Positions 1,106 through 28,237 of a stretch of DNA of 28,237 nucleotides are shown here, piece by piece. The position numbers and the translations under genes were made by a program. Position 1 is the stretch's first letter. Each line of letters begins with the position of its first letter. The stretch is taken from assembly GCA_027623195.1 (NCBI GenBank), contig JAQBUT010000031.1:1-28237 (forward strand). The letters are read 5' to 3'. Under the pieces are notes generated by a model that made no database searches, was not told the DNA's origin, and saw nothing but the letters and a program-made list of their open reading frames with translations. This DNA comes from Chloroflexota bacterium. GTDB taxonomy: Bacteria > Chloroflexota > Dehalococcoidia > Lucifugimonadales > JADFKI01.

Positions 1106-3493
1106 ATGCGCTCAACTATATTCGGCTGGGACGCCGGATCCGAAAATTTGGTTGCCGGTTACGACCTCATCGTGAAGCTCAGGAACGATAGAGGCGCAGA
1201 CGCAGACCAGTCTAATCTGCGAGAGTTGGCCGCCACGGCGCTGGTAGCCAAAGGCAACAGCCTTGCAGGGGCAGGCCACCACCAGGAGGCTATGAAGGCC
1301 TTCGAGGAGGTGCTCGGCAAGTTTGGGGACGTGCAAGAGCTAGCGATCAGAAAACAGTTGGCGTACTCCATGACATCCAAGGGGCGGCTCCTCGAACTCT
1401 TGGGTGATAAGCAACAGGCAGCCACAGTTTTCGAGGACGTTATCGCGCGTTTTGGTGATGATGAGGCCCTGGTCTTGCAGGAAGCAGTGGCAACATCCCT
1501 CCTGGCGAAGGGCAGTGCCCTCGCTGTTGAAGGCCTAGATGTCGAGGCTATAGCCGTATTCGACGAGATTCTTCGGCGTTACGGCGAGTCGGACACCCTG
1601 GGATTAAGAGAGCAGGTTGCTGGTGCTCTGCTGGCTAAAGGTAACCGGCTGGGTAGCCTGGGCCAAGATGACGCCGCGCTTGATTCTTATCGGCATCTGG
1701 TGGATCGCTTCGGTGATTGCAGTACGCAGGTCTTACAAGAACGAGTTGCAGGCGCCCTGGTGAATATGGGATTTCGCTTCGGCCTTATGGGTAAATCTAG
1801 TGAAGCAATAGCCGCATACGATCAGGTTCTGGAACGGTTCGGCGATTCCGGGGATGCCCCCATGAGGTTATATGTGGCCAACGCCCTGGTAAACAAGGGC
1901 AATCGCCTTGGGGCCATGGGGCAAGCTACTGAAGCCATAAGTGTTTACGACGATGTGCTGGCAAGATACATTGAATCGGATGACCTTTCGTTGATGGAGC
2001 GTAACGCCAGTGCGATGGTCGCCAAAGGGCATCGCCTGGGAGACCTGGAAAGGCATGAAGAGGCCCTCAATGCATACGATGAGGTCGTCCGGCGATACGG
2101 CAAGTCCGACGCCTCGGCGCTCAGGGACCGCGTTGCCAATGCTCTGGTGAGCAAGTCGTATCGTCTCCGACAACTTGGTGCGCTCTCCGAGGCCGTAGAG
2201 GTTTGTGACGAGGTTTTAGAATTGCTGGGGCAGTCATCGGAGGAGGACCCGAGCGAGGATTTGGCCAACGCTCTTCTCAACAAGGCTGAGGCGCTGGCAG
2301 ACCTTGGCAGGTCCGAAGAGGCCCTACGGCTGTACGATGAGGTCACGTCTCGCCTCCGGGATTCTCAGCATCTTTACCTGCAACAGGCATCGGCGAACGC
2401 CATGGTTTCCAAGGGCAACCGTCTTGTGGAACTTCGGCGTCAGAACGAAGCCATAACGGCATACGACGAAGCCTTGGACGCGTTTTCAAGTTCCAATGAT
2501 CCCTTAATCGTCACCTGCATGGCCAGCGCGATGATATCTAAGGGAAATCGCCTTAGCGATATGGGCAGCACGGACGAGGCGATTGAGGTGTTTGACAAGG
2601 TGACGTTGCTGGTGGATGGCACGCTGTACGAATCGCTTAGGGAGGGCGTATCAAGCCTTCTGTTGGTCAAAGGATTGCGGGTAGGGAGCCAGGGCAAGCT
2701 TGAAGAAGAGTTAGCTGTCTATGACGATGCCGTAGCTAGATTCGGAGATATGGAAAGCCCTGCGATGCGTGAAGACGTGGTGAACGCGCTTCTTATAAAG
2801 GGTTACAGACTCGCGAATATTGGCCGCCACCAGGAGGCGATTGTAGCCTATGAAGAGGCTATTAGCCGATTGGGAGACGAGGAATCCCCCATTATGCAGG
2901 GGCTCGCGATAGTGGTGCTGATGGCTAAATCCAACAGCCTGGCCGCAGACGGCAACCCGGTGGAGGCTGTAGCCTGCCTCTCGGAAGTCGCCAGACGATA
3001 CAGCAACACGCAAGGGATAGAGTTACAAGAAGGGGTAGCTGGCTCCCTGCTGGCTAAGGGCGGTATTCTCAAGTCCTCTGGCGATGTGGAGGGGGCCATT
3101 TCGGCGTTTGATGAGATTGTGGCAACCTTTGGCTCAAACAACCTTCCAGGGTTTAAGAAATTGGTGGCGAAGGCAATCATAGCCAAGGCGCAGGTGCTCA
3201 GTGAACTGGGCAGGTCTGATGAGGCAACAGTAGCCCTGGATGATGTGGTGAGACGATTCGGTGGGGACGAAAATGCCAGACCAGTCGCCACATTTAGAGA
3301 TTTCTCTGCCAATGCCGGAGTTGAAGGTCAGGATAGCGGCGTAACAGGGACAACCCTTTCAGACGTAATCAAAGATGCGGTCAGCAATTTCGCCGAGGAG
3401 AACGCCGCCGGCGATATCGGCGCGGCAGGAGCCACAAAAGTCCTGGATAAGGTGCTGCGGGGAATAAAAAATAACCTGTACGAGAGCGTCTAG
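1106..3493 (+). CDS. TPR-like repeat protein (16 x ~43-aa repeats)
   Basis: Recurrent unit A-x-A-L-V-x-K-G-x-R-L-x3-G-x3-E-A-I-x2-Y-D-E-V-x2-R-F-G-D throughout the 795-aa ORF. Confidence 0.85.
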   Translation: MRSTIFGWDAGSENLVAGYDLIVKLRNDRGADADQSNLRELAATALVAKGNSLAGAGHHQEAMKAFEEVLGKFGDVQELAIRKQLAYSMTSKGRLLELLGDKQQAATVFEDVIARFGDDEALVLQEAVATSLLAKGSALAVEGLDVEAIAVFDEILRRYGESDTLGLREQVAGALLAKGNRLGSLGQDDAALDSYRHLVDRFGDCSTQVLQERVAGALVNMGFRFGLMGKSSEAIAAYDQVLERFGDSGDAPMRLYVANALVNKGNRLGAMGQATEAISVYDDVLARYIESDDLSLMERNASAMVAKGHRLGDLERHEEALNAYDEVVRRYGKSDASALRDRVANALVSKSYRLRQLGALSEAVEVCDEVLELLGQSSEEDPSEDLANALLNKAEALADLGRSEEALRLYDEVTSRLRDSQHLYLQQASANAMVSKGNRLVELRRQNEAITAYDEALDAFSSSNDPLIVTCMASAMISKGNRLSDMGSTDEAIEVFDKVTLLVDGTLYESLREGVSSLLLVKGLRVGSQGKLEEELAVYDDAVARFGDMESPAMREDVVNALLIKGYRLANIGRHQEAIVAYEEAISRLGDEESPIMQGLAIVVLMAKSNSLAADGNPVEAVACLSEVARRYSNTQGIELQEGVAGSLLAKGGILKSSGDVEGAISAFDEIVATFGSNNLPGFKKLVAKAIIAKAQVLSELGRSDEATVALDDVVRRFGGDENARPVATFRDFSANAGVEGQDSGVTGTTLSDVIKDAVSNFAEENAAGDIGAAGATKVLDKVLRGIKNNLYESV

Positions 3494-4343: not shown

Positions 4344-5048
4344 TTAGAAGATGCCGTCCTTTTGGGCTTTGGCGATTACTTTGTAGAATTGCTGGTAATC
4401 GGTTATGCCTTTTTCGGCCAGTTTCTCAAGTATCCTCGCGCGTTTTTTGATAAGCGCATAGATTTGACGCTTTTTGGTGGGAGGGATGCCTCTTCGAGGC
4501 GCGATCTTGTACTCCAACAGGAAGCTGTTGTTTTCGCCCACGAACTCAAACACGTCTTTTACGGGGTCCCACTTGAAAACGTCGGCGAACGAGAATGCGT
4601 CAGCAACCGAGTCGTAGCTGATGATCTCTGAAATGCTTGTGGCGCGCCTTCCTGGTCTTCCATCTGGCAGCTTGACGCCTTCCTGAATGACGACCAGGTT
4701 GAGGTTATCAACGTAGGTCTTCGGCACACTGATGGGGCTACCCGTCAGCCTCTGGATCAGTTTTTGTACTGACGACGCGTGGAAGGTCGCCATAACAGAG
4801 TGACCGGTCTGCATCGCCTGGAAGGCAATCAAACCCTCCTCGCCACGAATCTCACCGATGATTATCTCGTCCGGCCTTTGACGGAGGGCTGCCTTTAGCA
4901 GGTCGAACATTCCTACGCCCGAACCTTCCTCTCCGGGTTTCGTCTGGCGTGTGACCTCTCTTATCCAGTTTGGATGCGGAACCTGCACCTCAGCGGTGTC
5001 CTCGATGCTTACGATCTTGGCGTCTGGATTAATGAACACAGTCATGGC
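4344..5048 (-). pseudogene. flaI: Archaellum motor ATPase ArlI/FlaI-type, 3' portion only (N-terminal domain and Walker A missing here)
   Basis: Contains KIVSIEDTAE (Asp box), MFDLLKAALRQRPDEIIIGEIRG (Walker B), AFQAMQTGHSVMATFHA (His box), LIQRLTG.PI.VPK, and the archaeal-type tail VFKWDPVKDVFEFVGENNSFLLEYKIA. Similarity begins at AMTVFINPD, just after where GxxGKTT should be. Confidence 0.8.
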
Positions 5049-5253
5049 TGTTGTTCTTCTTAGCGCCGTCCACGACTTCGTGCTGGGCCCTCGGGTGTCA
5101 GACCGCCTGGCCGCTTTGCGAGAGGACGGGGCGCCCCCTGCGGCCTTGCAAAGCGCTCGACGCTGGCTAATATGGGTTGCTCGCATCAACGTGCTAATGG
5201 TGCTTATTGTCGTGGCCCTTGCCATAATGCTAACCAGAGGTTCGCCATTCTAA
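5041..5253 (+). pseudogene. C-terminal fragment of a CopD/DUF4149-like membrane protein
   Basis: VMAVVLLSAVHDFVLGPR...RRWLIWVARINVLMVLIVVALAIML has two hydrophobic helices and an HDFxLGP motif typical of such C-termini. Upstream of 5041 the frame is only antisense of the ATPase. Confidence 0.6.
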
Positions 5254-14875: not shown

Positions 14876-15318
14876 ATATTGTCCTAAGTTCGGCCAGTTG
14901 ATATACGAAACCAGGATTCTAAATATCTAACCATTAGACCTGGCTACTTGAATGACTCATGGGCTAGTCGGCAGTTGTATTGATGAAGAACTATGCTTCT
15001 TAACATCACTAGAACTGCCGCTTAGGGCCTTCAATAGGCACGCAATTAACCTGATAATTGCGTGCCTATTTCTTTGCCTGTTGGGTGAAACTGCATCGTC
15101 TTATGCGCTCTCAGAAGCGCTATTCATAGCGGCATGCTAGATATGTCTCCATTCTGTGCAGCGGCTTGTAAAGGCAGTGGTGATATTGCTGAGGTATGTT
15201 GGCACCGAAAGCCGCTGCGTAATCGAAACACGAATAAACAGGGAATAGAAACGCCTTTAGCTCCACCAGTGGCGCGTCTAAAATGGCCGTAATCTTAGAA
15301 CAAGTGGAGTTTAATATC

Positions 15319-15684
15319 TTGCCAAAATTTGAACTAATAACCAAAGATGAGGCCCAATCAAAGTCCAGATTCGGTGGAAGAAGCGGGCAGGTTGTGGCTA
15401 TGTATATGTTCTTTATAGAGCAAATTAGGGAGGGCAAGGCTGGTCGACTAAAGCCTAGCGAAGGCGAGACGATTCAGGCCGTGCGAAGAAGGCTCGGAAA
15501 GGCCGCAAAGTTAGCTGGTAAGGAGCTAACTATAAAGCGCGTTCACGACGAGATTTATTTCTGGGTAGGTGCAGAGGAAGGCGCCAAGCAAACGAAGCGT
15601 AAACCACGCAGAAGCGTAGATAAAGGCCCCGCCAAGTTGGCTCCCGTATTCGTCGATAATATCGTTACGTTACACGAAAGGTAA
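15319..15684 (+). CDS. Small basic hypothetical protein, possible nucleic-acid binder
   Basis: K/R-rich ORF (AGRLKPSEGETIQAVRRRLGKAAKLAGKELTIKR...KRKPRR). Likely TTG start at 15319 with GGAG at 15306-15309; ATG 15283 is an alternative start. Confidence 0.65.
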   Translation: MPKFELITKDEAQSKSRFGGRSGQVVAMYMFFIEQIREGKAGRLKPSEGETIQAVRRRLGKAAKLAGKELTIKRVHDEIYFWVGAEEGAKQTKRKPRRSVDKGPAKLAPVFVDNIVTLHER

Positions 15685-16212
15685 TCGTTCGTATTACTAG
15701 TTTGGGAATTGGTGCGTAGTGATTTATGTTCACGTTTGATCTGCATACGAATGGGCATATAATTGACTAGCGAATAGTAAAAAAGAAGACTTTGAAATGC
15801 ACTTATAAAGGCAAGGGAATTGGCTTTGGATTGCGATGAAAGCTTCCATAAGTCGTATTTCTGTAGCCCTGCAAGCGTCAAAGCAACGTGCGGGTAAGTG
15901 AGCAGGCAAAACGCATCCTGTTTGGTCAACAAACGGAACCCCGTGCAACCCTACCCGGCCGACTTGACGTGCTGAACTGTCGTTGGGAAGGCCTGTTTTT
16001 TTGAGACCATTTGCAGGTTATTGAGTCATTAAATTAAACCCATATTGCCCTTAATTAAGCGCTATAGATCGGTCTTAATCTTGTTCGAAACATATATTTT
16101 TTAGCATCCCAATTCAATGCTACTTACGAAATGTTTAGTATATTTTTTATTTAACTAATTCAGAAAACATAATGCCGCTACTTTCCATATCGACGCATGT
16201 GCTAGACGCAAT

Positions 16213-16239
16213 AAGGGCCTCCCAAAATGGGAGGCCCTT
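16213..16239. terminator. Strong hairpin, probable terminator downstream of the minus-strand LLM gene
   Basis: Perfect 12-bp stem AAGGGCCTCCCA-AAA-TGGGAGGCCCTT. Confidence 0.65.
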
Positions 16240-16452
16240 GCGTTGATTTGCTGGTCCATTGCCGATGAACCTAACCAAACGAATGGCGTTTCAAATGCGG
16301 CGATATCCGTTTGTTACTACTTCGTGCGGTCCTGCGCCAAAGGCCGTGATGAGGCCTGTGTTTCGACGGGTTCGCCACGAACCGACAAGGCGTTCAAAAT
16401 TGGCCTTTCTTTTGCAAAGGCATCCGGCATGATTAGGTTGTTATCTGAGAAA

Positions 16453-17637
16453 CTACCTTGCAGATGATGCCGCCTGTTTGGCAGCCTCTCCCTTCTTGAA
16501 CTCGGGAATTACATACTTGCCGAATAGCTCAATGGACTTCATGACCTTCTCGTGAGGGATGGTCTCGGTCTGCATCATAATCATCATCTGGTCGATGCCC
16601 GTAGCCTCATGCTTTTTCAGCGCCTCGATGCAGCTATCCGGGTCGCCGCCGATGACCACTGCCCTTTCGCATAGCGTTTCGGCGTCCAGTTCGTCCCAGA
16701 TCTTATTGGCGATGGCGGAGCCGCCGGAGTAGTCCAGGATATTCTCCTTTATCTCCGTTTCGCCCTCCAACTCAACGTAGCGCGAGAAGTTGGCCTGCAG
16801 ATGGTCGGGCACGCCGCCCCACCGTTCCAGCAGCTGGGCGTATATGTCCTTCTGCCCCTGTACGTAGGGTCTATCGGGGCCGAAGAAGTTCTTAAGCGAC
16901 TGTGCGCTTAGTCTCTTTGCCTCCGCGTCGTCCTCCAGGCAGATCCCCAGCGTCGAGCTAGCCCACTGGTCGTTGACGAAGGCGCCGACTGGCTTGGCGT
17001 TCTTGACGCGCTCCTTGTAGGCCTTCACGTACGGCTCCAGGGACGACGGCGCGCTGGACCCGAAGGCCAACACCCCTATGCCCTTGTCCGCGGCGATGTC
17101 GTACGTAGACGGCTGCAGCGCCGCCACCCACATTGGCGGGTGCGGCTTCTGGTAAGGCTTGGGCAGGATCTGCCGCTCCGGTACCTGCCAGAACTTGCCC
17201 TCGTAGGAGAACTTGTCTGAGCCCCAGATCTTCGGCACCATGGTCAGGGACTCCTCCCACATTTCGCGGCTGTCCCGCGGGTCAATGCCCATGCCTGTGA
17301 GTTCATACGGCGCAGAACGGCCCGTTCCGAAGTCGACCCGACCCTCAGATAGGTGGTCCAGCATTGCGACGCGCTCCGCCACTCTATTCGGGTGATGGTA
17401 CGGCAGAATCACGACTCCTAAGCCAAGCCGAATCTGCTTCGTGCGCTGGCTCAGCGCGGCGTAAATCAGGTCCGGGCACGGCGATGCGGAGAAGCCCGTG
17501 AGGAAGTGGTGTTCCACGAACCACAGGTAATCGAAGCCAACCTCGTCGGCCAAGATGCATTGCTCCATCGTCTCTTGAAGCACCAGGTGGTCATCCAATG
17601 ATGGGCGCTGCATTTCGTACTGTAATGCTAATTTCAT
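16453..17637 (-). CDS. LLM-class flavin-dependent oxidoreductase (luciferase-like monooxygenase)
   Basis: Motifs ADEVGFDYLWFVEHHF, HPNRVAERVAMLDHLSEGRVDFGTGRS, PKPYQKPHPPMW. Confidence 0.92.
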   Translation of the reverse strand: MKLALQYEMQRPSLDDHLVLQETMEQCILADEVGFDYLWFVEHHFLTGFSASPCPDLIYAALSQRTKQIRLGLGVVILPYHHPNRVAERVAMLDHLSEGRVDFGTGRSAPYELTGMGIDPRDSREMWEESLTMVPKIWGSDKFSYEGKFWQVPERQILPKPYQKPHPPMWVAALQPSTYDIAADKGIGVLAFGSSAPSSLEPYVKAYKERVKNAKPVGAFVNDQWASSTLGICLEDDAEAKRLSAQSLKNFFGPDRPYVQGQKDIYAQLLERWGGVPDHLQANFSRYVELEGETEIKENILDYSGGSAIANKIWDELDAETLCERAVVIGGDPDSCIEALKKHEATGIDQMMIMMQTETIPHEKVMKSIELFGKYVIPEFKKGEAAKQAASSAR

Positions 17638-17776: not shown

Positions 17777-17805
17777 TGGACACATATTTAGAATAATCTT
17801 ATAAA
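17777..17805 (+). promoter_or_regulatory. Sigma70-type promoter for parA
   Basis: TGGACA (17777-17782), 17-bp spacer, TATAAA (17800-17805). Confidence 0.55.
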
Positions 17806-17860
17806 GATAGTTAAACATCGAGATGGTGAGTCATCTAGTTAACTTGCTATCTAGTTGGGC
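17805..17860. repeat. 8-bp-phased degenerate repeat patch over the parA promoter (putative operator)
   Basis: Consecutive octamers AGATAGTT AAACATCG AGATGGTG AGTCATCT AGTTAACT TGCTATCT AGTTGGGC, the same pattern as the downstream patches. Confidence 0.6.
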
Positions 17861-17902
17861 CTCATGGCTTGTTAGACTGCCTGAAAGGGGTAGGGAGAGA
17901 AA

Positions 17903-18565
17903 GTGATAGTAGCTGTATTGGGTGAAAAGGGCGGAACAGGAAAGACCACGTTTTCGACGAATCTGGCCGGCATGAGGTCGGCTTCAGGTCGGGACGTTCT
18001 GGTAGTGGATGCGGACCGTCAGGGTAGTTCTAGCTACTGGGCGGAGGCCCGAGAGGCAAAGGGGTTGACGTCAGTTAGCTGTGTCCAGAAATTCGGCGAT
18101 GGACTGGCCAGAGCCATTAGAGATATGTCGCGCCGCTACGACGATGTGGTCATAGACATAGCCTCTGGCGACAGCCGCGAGATCGAGGGCGCACTTCGAG
18201 TGGCCGACATGGTAATCATCCCGGTGCAGCCCTCCGGCATCGACGTATGGACGCTGGGCCTGCTGGACGACCGCATAAGCCAAGCCATGCAGGGCAACAA
18301 GAAGCTCACCGCTTACGTCGTCATAAACAGGGCATCTACGAACCCACGGGACAACGATGCCGACGACGCCAAGGATGCCATGGCCGTGTGCGAAACCCTG
18401 ACCATCACAGATGTTGTAGTGAGGGATCGGGTGTCGATAAAAAGGTCTGTTCCCGCTGGCATTACCGCCAGCGAGTATAGGCCTTTGGACAGCAAGGCGG
18501 CCCTGGAAATGACTGCACTGTACAATCTTGCTTTTGGAGAGAATGGACACAGAAATGGAAATTAG
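17903..18565 (+). CDS. parA: ParA/ParF-type Walker-box partition ATPase (type Ib, no N-terminal HTH)
   Basis: Deviant Walker A GEKGGTGKTT at the very N-terminus; also VVDADRQGS, DDVVIDIA, ADMVIIPVQPS. 220 aa. Confidence 0.9.
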   Translation: MIVAVLGEKGGTGKTTFSTNLAGMRSASGRDVLVVDADRQGSSSYWAEAREAKGLTSVSCVQKFGDGLARAIRDMSRRYDDVVIDIASGDSREIEGALRVADMVIIPVQPSGIDVWTLGLLDDRISQAMQGNKKLTAYVVINRASTNPRDNDADDAKDAMAVCETLTITDVVVRDRVSIKRSVPAGITASEYRPLDSKAALEMTALYNLAFGENGHRNGN

Positions 18566-18794
18566 ACCGCGAAGTAAGGCTCAGAAGGTAGATACCAGGG
18601 GAAGTGGCCCAGGCGCTAAGCCCCGTAGAATAGCGGAAACAGGTCCCCGAAAGGCCGTTATCATACGCATGCCCGAGGAGCTGGCACACCAGCTCAAGGT
18701 CGTTTCGGCCCACGAGGACATGACGGCTCAAGACTTCTGTCTGGACGCCATTCGGCCTATGATCGACAAGGCGCTCAAACGACACGGACTGTAA
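18543..18794 (+). CDS. Ribbon-helix-helix DNA-binding protein (ParG-like partner of ParA)
   Basis: 83 aa, overlaps the parA 3' end, RBS GGAGAG. A flexible basic N-tail is followed by a strand (KAVIIRM), a helix (PEELAHQLKVVSAHE) and a second helix (TAQDFCLDAI). Confidence 0.75.
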   Translation: MDTEMEIRPRSKAQKVDTRGSGPGAKPRRIAETGPRKAVIIRMPEELAHQLKVVSAHEDMTAQDFCLDAIRPMIDKALKRHGL

Positions 18795-18828
18795 CCCCCT
18801 CCCCTACACCCTCTTATTCGGACGTTAA

Positions 18829-18862
18829 AAGTGGCAGGCAAATCGCCTGCCACTTGTTTTTT
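18829..18862 (+). terminator. Intrinsic terminator of the parA-RHH operon
   Basis: AAGTGGCAGGC-AAATC-GCCTGCCACTT followed by GTTTTTT. Confidence 0.8.
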
Positions 18863-18897
18863 GGATGGGTTTTTGCGATGAGTTGGATCTATTTATT

Positions 18898-19459
18898 AGA
18901 TAACTAGTTAGCAAGCTGTCCAGATAACTAGCCGACTAGTTATCTGTATGTACGGCTGTATTGCCTTCTAAACGGAAATGCCCTCGAGTGAATAACATCC
19001 TCAGCTACGGATTATTTTTTGGTGATATATTGATGACTTGATAACTAGTCATATGGCTAACATGATATCGAGTTGTCTAGATGTTTTGTTGTCAAGATAT
19101 CCAAAATAAACCGCATGCGGAACATGACAGATGCCATCAAAACTTAGTTTTGGTTCAGTCATGGGAAGGTGGGCAGGGCCAGATTCGGCACATACGAAAT
19201 CCTGGAGGAATATACAAAGCCTGTGACGTTGAATAAATCGGGTCCACGTGTTGAGATTCAGGTACCATCTTGTTCTAGATAATAGAGAACTTGATGACTA
19301 GCTAATGTGAGGACAAGCTATATTGTTATCTAGATAACTAATGAGCATGAATACCGGATGTGATGTCATGGTGATCACTCGCGGCAGTGCTGATTGGATA
19401 ACTAGCTATGATGTCATATTAATATCAAGATGCTTCGCCACCATGCTATCTAGATAGCT
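18898..19459. repeat. Three patches of 8-bp-phased degenerate repeats (approx. WGAT-RWCT), putative centromere-like site
   Basis: Patches at 18898-18961, 19023-19102 and 19288-19459. GATAACTA starts at 18899, 18923, 19040, 19333 and 19397. Inverted repeat CAGATAACTAG-CCGA-CTAGTTATCTG (18921-18946). Palindromes GTTATCTAGATAAC (19325-19338) and GCTATCTAGATAGC (19445-19458). Confidence 0.75.
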
Positions 19460-19524: not shown

Positions 19525-20166
19525 TTGAAGGCATTCATAAGTTATTCGACAACCGATAAGCCCGTGGCGGGGTCTGTTAAGACAGTCCTTGATAACATCG
19601 GTAAAGAAGCATTCCTAGCACACGAAGACATCAGAGTTTCCCAAGACTGGAAGAATCGTATCCTCCGTGAATTGAAAGAGGCGCAGATTTTTGTTCCATT
19701 ACTAAGTAAGGCATTCAAACGGTCCAGATGGGCGTCCCAGGAAATCGGACTGGCATTTGCACAAGAGGATGTTTTATTCATTCCGCTTTCGATAGATGGC
19801 ACAATTCCATTTGGATTCATTTCCCACCTTCAAGGCAAATTGATTCCAGACGATGGAGACTACGAAGAATTGATAATTTCTCCTATCATTGGTGGGTACC
19901 CCCACGAAGTTATCCCTGGTCTCATCAAACGCATGGCAAATGCAGGTAGCTTCCGAAGTACCGAGGCCTTCATGCTGCCTATGGTTTCTCATTTTGACAG
20001 GTTTAATGTTGCTGAAGTGAGCGCCTTCGCAAATGCTTCAATAGACAACGGGCATATACGGTCAGCTAAAGATTGCCGTAACTTATACTTGCCTAATTTT
20101 ATTCGGATTAACAGATCAAAGATGACTTCTAAGGTACGAAAAGCGCTTGAGAATAAAATAGCCTAA
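19525..20166 (+). CDS. TIR-domain protein with an uncharacterised C-terminal helical domain
   Basis: Motifs AFISYS, AFLAHEDI, IFVPLLSKAF, SRWASQEIG (candidate catalytic Glu). TTG start. Visibly AT-richer than the neighbouring metabolic genes. Confidence 0.85.
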   Translation: MKAFISYSTTDKPVAGSVKTVLDNIGKEAFLAHEDIRVSQDWKNRILRELKEAQIFVPLLSKAFKRSRWASQEIGLAFAQEDVLFIPLSIDGTIPFGFISHLQGKLIPDDGDYEELIISPIIGGYPHEVIPGLIKRMANAGSFRSTEAFMLPMVSHFDRFNVAEVSAFANASIDNGHIRSAKDCRNLYLPNFIRINRSKMTSKVRKALENKIA

Positions 20167-20208: not shown

Positions 20209-21138
20209 CTACAACCCCGCCTCGATACGCATAGCCGCTGGCTTTAATAGGGCGTAGATGGTGCTGTTGACTGGGGTGGGCACGCCGGCCTCTATGCCCA
20301 TGCGCAGCACCGTGCCAACGATGCCCTCCAGCTCAACCCGATTGCCGCCGCGAAAGTCCTTGGCCAGCGAGGCCATACCGTCCGGCGGAAAGTTGTCCAG
20401 CTGCGTCATGGACCAGTCAACCATGGAGTCGTCTACCGGCGCGCCTCTGGCCTTTCCGACGGCGAGAATCTCGGCGCAACTCTGGCGGATAAGCTCTCGC
20501 GTCTCCGGTATTGTCCGCATATCGCTGTAGGGAATCTGCGTAACGGCGTTTACGCCCGCTGCGCTCGTCAGGAAAAGGTACTTTCGCCACACTGCGCCCA
20601 TGGCGTTGTCGGAAAGCTCCACGTTCCAGCCGCCGTTCTTGAACACATCGTACAGTCGTCTGCCCCTGTCGGTAATGCCGCCCGGGATTTCTCCGAACGC
20701 CGCCATGCCGAACTGGCCGAGCTGTTCCACGGCTCCCGGCTCTCGGATTCGCGCCTGGACGCCCACCATGCCGACCATGACGTGCTCCTCACCGTAGGCC
20801 TCCACCAGCCTGTCGCCGTTGTCGATGCCGTTTTGCACCGTGAGAACTACCGTGCCGTCGCCCACCAGCGGCGCTATGAAGGGGATCGCCTCCTCGTTGT
20901 GGTACATCTTGACCGTGTATAGGACAAGGTCGACATGCCCGATCTCGTCAGGATTGTCTGTGGCCTGACTGCCCGCGACAAACTCGCCTGAGAGGTCGCT
21001 GAACACCCGTAGGCCGCTGTTTTTGATGGCCTGAAGGTGAGGACCTCTTGCGATGAACGTAACGTCCTCTCCGGCGCGGGCCAGCAGGCCGCCGAAGTAT
21101 CCGCCTACGCCCCCGGTACCCATAACGGCTATTTTCAT
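20209..21138 (-). CDS. panE: 2-dehydropantoate 2-reductase (ketopantoate reductase family)
   Basis: Motifs MKIAVMGTGGVGGYFG, TVQNG, WRKY, SLAKDFRGGNRVELE, GVPTPVN. Confidence 0.88.
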   Translation of the reverse strand: MKIAVMGTGGVGGYFGGLLARAGEDVTFIARGPHLQAIKNSGLRVFSDLSGEFVAGSQATDNPDEIGHVDLVLYTVKMYHNEEAIPFIAPLVGDGTVVLTVQNGIDNGDRLVEAYGEEHVMVGMVGVQARIREPGAVEQLGQFGMAAFGEIPGGITDRGRRLYDVFKNGGWNVELSDNAMGAVWRKYLFLTSAAGVNAVTQIPYSDMRTIPETRELIRQSCAEILAVGKARGAPVDDSMVDWSMTQLDNFPPDGMASLAKDFRGGNRVELEGIVGTVLRMGIEAGVPTPVNSTIYALLKPAAMRIEAGL

Positions 21139-28098: not shown

Positions 28099-28237
28099 GT
28101 TTAACTTTCCTTTGGCCCGCGGTATAGATTTAATCGGAGGGTCGAGTGTGGAAGGCAGGCCATCGCTCCACTGTTGTCATTCAGCGAAGTGGGACAGAAA
28201 ACTTAGTGGAGAGAATCGGCTGAATTGGCGAGCTCTC

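Follow-up and report, generated by a model that had tools for sequence, protein, structure and literature searches.

The canonical ParABS (Soj/Spo0J) system combines a ParA-family ATPase acting at a chromosomal cis site with a helix-turn-helix (HTH)/CTPase ParB and a 16-bp parS palindrome. In the accessible part of the literature, bacterial chromosomes use ParB clamps on parS, and ribbon-helix-helix (RHH) centromeres are described for plasmids and for the Sulfolobus SegAB system; the available text of review PMC7022226 mentions RHH partners among plasmid systems only. In the ParFGH system of TP228, one ParG dimer occupies each box at 8-bp spacing, the same box serves as operator and centromere, and the tail holds an arginine finger (available text of PMC3130281). 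Here we describe a type Ib-style cassette in contig JAQBUT010000031.1 (C31; 28,237 nucleotides, analysed over its whole length and called the window) of a 3.0 Mb assembly in 65 contigs (G000, 87% complete). The host is a probable SAR202 member of the Chloroflexota, the phylum named in an earlier reading of the window's letters (the original prediction) and supported here. The cassette consists of parA, an overlapping gene for a predicted RHH protein, and phased repeat boxes over the promoter and downstream. It appears intact, and we hold it an evenly balanced proposition, argued by analogy with TP228, that it positions or segregates its region of the host chromosome. Genomes, cassette loci, contigs and genera carry the prefixes G, L, C and g (g1-g4) below.

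Architecture of the cassette and described systems

By its sequence, the cassette has the architectural features of the TP228 ParFGH family and is not a canonical ParABS. As in the accessible description of TP228 ParF-ParG-parH/OF, a short ParA without HTH is paired with a small RHH partner carrying a flexible N-tail, and degenerate boxes of 8-bp period and mixed orientation, here predicted from sequence, lie at the promoter and in a centromere array. The TP228 box, as described there, is ACTC with a 4-bp AT spacer, whereas that of the cassette is WWGATRAC. The main field of the cassette is downstream, with three sub-arrays over about 560 bp; that of TP228 is upstream and about 100 bp long. 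Unlike TP228, the cassette has no replicon and is fixed among chromosomal genes, although some of its distant relatives do have a replication protein (Rep). No sequence match between the RHH protein and ParG reached significance (11-16% in structural alignments). With ParABS the cassette shares a ParA-family ATPase and a chromosomal cis site, its action there being proposed, but no HTH/CTPase ParB or 16-bp parS was found in the host genome, and the cassette does not lie beside dnaA.

Two chromosomal systems are also comparable, as far as the available texts describe them. Sulfolobales SegA-SegB-segS resembles the cassette in architecture only, with a chromosomal ParA gene overlapping an RHH gene and nearby repeat sites; SegAB is archaeal, with 7-bp repeat sites and a SegB described as archaea-specific (PMC9178275, PMC12139799), whereas the cassette is bacterial, has close Rep-linked relatives and occurs in few lineages. 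The cassette box also differs from the segS motif quoted in PMC12139799. Desulfitobacterium ParMR(C), a system of unknown role, is likewise of the plasmid partition type and conserved on chromosomes within one genus, but it is an actin-like type II motor and the cassette a Walker-A type Ib system (PMC12270681). Plasmid-type systems on chromosomes are thus already known (archaeal SegAB, chromosomal ParMs). No publication describing this module was found in a search without most subscription papers or supplements; new here are the Rep-linked sisters, the evidence from selection and motif turnover, the sister-genus sites without the cassette, and the lack of ScpB across the order.

ParA carries a deviant Walker A motif (KGGTGKT, residues 9-15) and no N-terminal HTH. 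Its best PDB sequence match was TP228 ParF (4dzz, E 2.9e-13), and its score against NF041546 was 150 bits, under the cut-off of 180. This match, the RHH partner and the shared phased box bear out the TP228-like type Ib architecture originally proposed, as do the positions of the short ParA gene, the overlapping small gene and the terminator (Table 1). The small protein had been read as 83 aa; in 26 of 27 aligned homologues the start corresponds to Met 18555, giving 79 aa and an 11-nt overlap with parA. Its RHH fold, on which the original prediction had staked its case, is still predicted. In the AlphaFold2 model, a disordered N-terminus leads into an extended segment followed by two helices (low confidence for residues 1-40, pLDDT 86-93 in the C-terminal half), and nearly all top matches in structural searches with it were RHH proteins (VIA Z scores 6.6-4.2; TacA1 6.6, PutA RHH 6.5). 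The Foldseek rows were also RHH, but none at E<=0.001, and Pfam RHH_10 matched at E 6e-4, below its curated cut-off; these structural scores are middling, as expected for a 45-residue fold. The N-tail bears a conserved RGSGPGAxxRR motif, by analogy a candidate arginine finger stimulating the ParA ATPase. A complex prediction with two ParA, two RHH, ATP and Mg scored 0.00, gave no verdict and was used neither way.

The box, with consensus WWGATRAC, an 8-bp period and both orientations, was evaluated with 1000 dinucleotide shuffles. Between 18860 and 19470, 20 boxes were found against a shuffle mean of 8.0 (0/1000 shuffles reached 20), and 38 of the 43 box pairs within 64 bp were in 8-bp phase against a mean of 0.82 (0/1000). 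The promoter set is small, with four boxes (reached by 45/1000 shuffles) and three of six pairs in phase (2/1000). The same phased repeat at both places, as first reported, was therefore recovered. The downstream field was the top 600-bp window of 29,593 genome-wide, and a position weight matrix trained solely on 29 regions that neighbour distant homologues (about 60% identity in the RHH protein) ranked the window sub-arrays 1, 2 and 9 among all peaks in the 3.0 Mb genome. L089 and L091 retain both promoter hexamers around a drifting spacer sequence, and the promoter is predicted from this conservation. A promoter scanner found nothing above chance; its rule requires T at -10 position 6, so that it misses TATAAA. 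The terminator search returned one hairpin against 2.1 expected in shuffles, and support for it comes from its position; different hairpins with T tails lie at the same place in L089 and L091.

Chromosomal residence and plasmid-type relatives

Synteny in relatives, by which the original prediction could be checked, was found: the order LLM (luciferase-like monooxygenase)-parA-RHH-array is shared by four lineages (the window, G001/L089/L090, L091 and L092; ParA 79-94% identical). The L092 LLM groups with G003 of genus g2 (support 100/100), and the syntenic cassette probably spans two genera. The ParAs of the syntenic group formed one clade (100/98), and the Rep-linked group described below another (100/99). 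The ratio of nonsynonymous to synonymous substitution rates (dN/dS) was 0.038-0.041 for ParA against L078, L089 and L091, with a near-saturated dS of 0.8-1.2, and 0.038-0.048 for the RHH protein against L089 and L091. Neighbouring genes gave 0.004-0.107, a range that includes both, and the two cassette genes are under strong purifying selection. At all 13 LLM loci of the sister genera g3 and g4, no parA lay within 1.5 kb, and at 11 of the 13 the LLM adjoins the gene that sits downstream of panE in the window.

The boxes appear to travel with the cassette. Similar boxes lie upstream of parA in L089, L091, L092, L079 and the Rep-linked loci, and next to the cassette L089, L091, L093 and L079 showed enrichment and phasing of the motif (in-phase pairs: 0/1000 shuffles), with weaker phasing in L092 (14/1000). 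Between the window, L089, L091 and L092 the downstream arrays have diverged beyond alignment, three comparisons giving one 26-bp hit, and yet their in-phase pairs were reached by only 0, 0, 0 and 14 of 1000 shuffles, respectively. Phased boxes kept in array DNA that cannot be aligned point to selection on the sites.

In G003 the same gene block is found some 5 kb away from polA/metH, and in closed g4 genomes it is part of their one contig; this placement in relatives speaks for the main chromosome. The original prediction had looked to core markers or a GC-skew switch on the contig; neither was seen on C31, and it is the relatives that place the block on the chromosome. The GC content of C31 is 54.4%, against about 55% for the genome. 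In data of a second study, the sequencing runs cover the cassette about as deeply as its flanks. Among the contigs, LLM-parA and array-TIR-panE are equally deep and are joined through an overlapping piece of 287 bp, with no single piece spanning the whole cassette region. A second chromosomal copy was found in G417, of the same order and another family, among lysS, ftsH, rsgA, lepA, ksgA and ispE-like genes. Its box field lies upstream and holds 28 boxes in 1.6 kb, and no Rep or integrase was seen in the approximately 45 open reading frames (ORFs) scanned, a part of those in the surrounding 80 kb. As judged from these comparisons, the cassette is a long-term resident of the host chromosome.

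Its distant relatives lead to plasmids. In 15 of 29 distant metagenome loci (L094-L122), the array runs directly into a 351-aa ORF with matches to proteins annotated for plasmid replication (1310 PLSDB records, best 36-40%, E ~1e-60; Atlas 0.95-0.98 to RepA/TrfA clusters). Other distant loci adjoin transposases, a resolvase or an integrase, and in G779 the cassette lies in an insertion sequence-rich field, with an RPA-family Rep some 12 kb away. The name Ca. Tectomicrobia is attached to one relative of ParA and to one of the Rep. PLSDB plasmids held ParAs of at most 47% identity, and viral contigs only distant ParAs (<=45%). The cassette was likely captured from a plasmid, the direction being deduced from the rare and patchy distribution and not from a tree root. 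More tentatively, and a little short of an even chance, the SAR202-type order would have taken up the same plasmid type Ib cassette into its main chromosome on at least two occasions and expanded the box field to form a functional RHH centromere, a bacterial counterpart of SegAB whose Rep-linked plasmid sisters are extant. If true, the retention by selection of a plasmid RHH system on a bacterial chromosome would illustrate the passage of segregation machines from plasmid to chromosome, with domestication caught early enough that the Rep-linked sisters persist.

Several candidates were dropped. Two further distant loci (L094/L095) continue into a 656-aa ORF, in one case followed by a DnaB-like helicase; a Rep identity for this ORF was not demonstrated, Atlas naming an HTH protein. 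An ancestral class-wide short-ParA system was unsupported (2/301 class genomes at E<=1e-30, few strong NF041546 hits). Weak RHH hits (L082-L084, L123, L132-L146, L148) had no parA within 1.5 kb and were set aside as unrelated or incomplete.

More distant ParA-RHH pairs (39-54% identical) occur at 0-18 copies per genome in the host's family. In the two annotated genomes, G014 and G024, both closed and of the same family, they sit on large integrated elements (G014:C1 ~305-367 kb, L060-L063; G024:C1 ~2978-3070 and 3141-3200 kb, L065-L073). These elements carry their own rpoB, dnaN, ligA, Rad52, ArdC, RadC and a ParB-like protein, with a tandem DnaC-like ATPase gene directly after the ParA-RHH pair; the G014 element adds HU, two SSBs, a DnaG zinc finger and, at its far end, a tyrosine integrase. 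The element rpoB product is about 1240 aa, 45% to the G000 copy and 76-86% to each other, and these elements may constitute an undescribed family. A DnaC-like gene follows the ParA-RHH pair in 12 of 32 loci, and G020 holds 18 such ParAs. The pairs at L021-L048 have other short repeats over their promoters, few of which match the WWGATRAC model; element-borne pairs appear to have changed their boxes and offer a natural series in which to study how RHH specificity switches.

Segregation background and competing explanations

No ParB_N (PF02195) or TIGR00180 match was found in the 87% complete G000, where ParB-like queries hit merely a non-ParB C-terminal stretch. No 16-bp parS lay within one mismatch, and the three best sites were scattered with 2-3 mismatches, so that the canonical parAB/parS that the original prediction suggested looking for was not found in the host genome. 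ScpB (PF04079) had no match in G000 or in any of 121 order genomes (0/121), and 23 of 151 order genomes had a ParB scoring above the TIGR00180 cut-off, control genomes being positive in both searches. The order thus seems to be without both usual segregation systems, in searches that covered ParB and ScpB and left aside MukBEF/MksBEF and SMC. The sole canonical-looking ParB in the family sample, on G021:C3 (L049, L151), lies near a second dnaA on a separate contig, which is probably assembly contamination.

With respect to the origin, dnaA lies on C65, and synteny with G001/G002 gives a scaffold C44-C61-C52-C65. Contig walking by synteny linked C31 to C33 alone, with no link to the dnaA scaffold, and ended at gaps. 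No DnaA-box cluster was found near the cassette, and the GC skew was weak and did not switch within C31 or across 80 kb of G417:C1.

The steps by which the cassette would position or segregate its region are drawn from analogy with TP228 ParFGH; the layout, phased boxes, synteny and selection are observed. RHH dimers would each bind one WWGATRAC box at 8-bp spacing, and the boxes over the -10 element would repress the operon. The approximately 20 boxes of the three downstream sub-arrays would load a cooperative RHH coat, forming the centromere complex. ATP-bound ParA would coat the nucleoid, the RHH N-tail (RGSGPGAxxRR) would stimulate hydrolysis, and duplicated loci would separate along the ParA gradient. 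The cassette would be an accessory aid rather than the essential segregation machine of its lineage, because relatives manage without it. Its two genes and 1.7 kb offer a small testable handle on how a ScpB-less, mostly ParB-less order segregates DNA, though it is too rare to be the order's general answer.

A number of observations weigh against this explanation. Closed relatives such as G005, G007, G008 and G011 have neither ParB nor the cassette, so the family segregates without it; the missing ParB therefore cuts both ways, leaving a niche open while most ParB-less relatives also do without the cassette, and a general substitute for ParABS is not supported. A ParB could also sit in the unassembled part of G000. 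If gene order is shared, the cassette would lie at least about 165 kb from dnaA. In the available text of PMC12139799, Sulfolobus segS lies 166 kb from an origin, so this distance is compatible with a segregation role, though it sets the cassette apart from origin-adjacent parABS. Strong RHH matches were found in only 2/401 order genomes and 2/401 class genomes, and assembly gaps over the site in G002 and G003 prevent presence from being scored there. The 15 Rep-linked loci are 91-100% identical and hence count as one lineage, and in the deep ParA tree the branching order of the window group and the Rep-linked group is unsupported.

The main rival, which we regard as unlikely, is an incompatibility barrier, in which the chromosomal ParA/RHH and box field titrate or mis-position incoming plasmids or integrative elements with the same boxes. 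The abundance of related ParA-RHH modules on mobile DNA of the host family (0-18 per genome), the similar boxes at some element promoters (4-7 scoring boxes in L024-L026, L033 and L039) and the Thoeris-like TIR gene in the adjacent variable slot all fit such a role. Moreover, G000 and G001 show just this one such ParA each, and the accessible text of PMC9178275 offers a precedent in ParI of Pseudomonas putida. The element ParAs, however, share only 39-54% identity, and upstream of most of them there are 0-2 matching boxes; exclusion would take more than three genomes to show. Among SAR202 genomes, no plasmid with a WWGATRAC box was found, and a query with the Rep returned nothing in 10 genomes in a search run without a positive control.

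Selection and motif turnover speak against a quite improbable second rival, a relic of an integrated plasmid kept as an autoregulated operon that is costly to lose in part, unbalanced ParA/RHH being harmful, and that has no useful positioning role. Both genes are under strong purifying selection over dS above 1, and the downstream field, unneeded for autoregulation, is kept by motif while its sequence turns over. The field is also larger (about 560 bp here, 1.6 kb in G417) than that of the Rep-linked relatives (<100 bp). What a relic would explain is the patchy distribution, the success of relatives without the cassette and its location in a lower-GC stretch.

There is also a slim prospect that the RHH field organises or tethers the local nucleoid or regulates neighbours, ParA positioning that complex or other cargo, with no chromosome segregation. 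This would suit a cassette that is not origin-adjacent and shares its operator region with the divergent LLM promoter, and orphan ParAs position non-DNA cargo according to the available text of PMC9178275; but the boxes are concentrated at one locus, the G417 copy has unrelated neighbours, and the layout equals that of the Rep-linked relatives. Finally, the chromid or large-island option of the original prediction, by which the cassette would be the partition system of a chromid, megaplasmid or island, is disfavoured and highly improbable, despite the lack of a universal core marker on C31 or its syntenic neighbour C33, the assembly in 65 pieces and the 10 of 34 window ORFs without a family, since the same block lies by polA and metH in G003 and on closed g4 chromosomes, the GC content of the contig is that of the genome, the G417 copy sits among core genes, and G000 has no homologue of the two candidate Reps, by which a Rep beyond the window was sought, or of the element ParB-like, Rad52 or ArdC genes.

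A domesticated system is thus supported as regards a chromosome region, by synteny in four lineages, selection, motif turnover, Rep-linked relatives, empty sister-genus sites and the missing ParB/parS.

Gene layout and minor observations

The positions of the cassette and its neighbours are given in Table 1.

Table 1. Features of the cassette and flanking genes in the window.
Feature	Position	Strand	Details
Predicted sigma-70 promoter	17777..17805	+	-35 TGGACA 17777-17782, 17 nt, -10 TATAAA 17800-17805
Predicted operator	17804..17859	+	8-bp-phased boxes from the -10 element on; scoring boxes 17804, 17830, 17846
parA, short ParF-like type Ib Walker-A ATPase, 220 aa	17903..18565	+	GTG start, TAG stop
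Predicted RHH centromere-binding protein, 79 aa	18555..18794	+	alternative start 18543 = 83 aa
Terminator-like hairpin with T tail, intrinsic type	18829..18863	+	hairpin 18829-18855
Centromere-like sub-array A, 8-bp phase	18897..18946	.	box model rank 9 in genome
Centromere-like sub-array B	19024..19101	.	rank 1 in genome, externally trained model
Centromere-like sub-array C	19276..19459	.	rank 2 in genome, externally trained model
TIR-domain gene, variable slot	19525..20166	+	Pfam TIR_2 E 1.8e-16
Left flank: LLM, divergent from parA; synteny anchor	16453..17637	-	
Right flank: panE/apbA ketopantoate reductase	20209..21138	-	

The flanks had been given as LLM and panE genes; the LLM stands on the left, while a TIR_2 gene, missed earlier, lies between the array and panE. 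By comparison of loci this gene is a passenger outside the conserved module, being missing in L089/L090/L092 and replaced by another ORF in L091. It gave weak Thoeris ThsB-like PADLOC hits, and no ThsA partner was seen in the window. As originally stated, no rep, relaxase, integrase or transposase was detected by domain scan of the 34 window ORFs, 10 of which had no Pfam match.

To the left of the LLM, positions 15000-16450 are low in GC (45-47%) with long non-coding parts and contain one conserved ORF (15283-15684) that has no Pfam match and is 79% in G001 and 52% in G003. At 4344-5225, a T2SSE-like ATPase ORF is 293 aa long, against about 590 aa for the matching gene on G002:C101; G002 carries an extra 8 kb at this place, and the window copy may be truncated by deletion. 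The last 68 bp of the window (28170-28237) form a contig-terminal repeat that is 100% identical at ten other contig ends, with weaker copies in C19, and is perhaps a small mobile or REP-like repeat at which assembly breaks.

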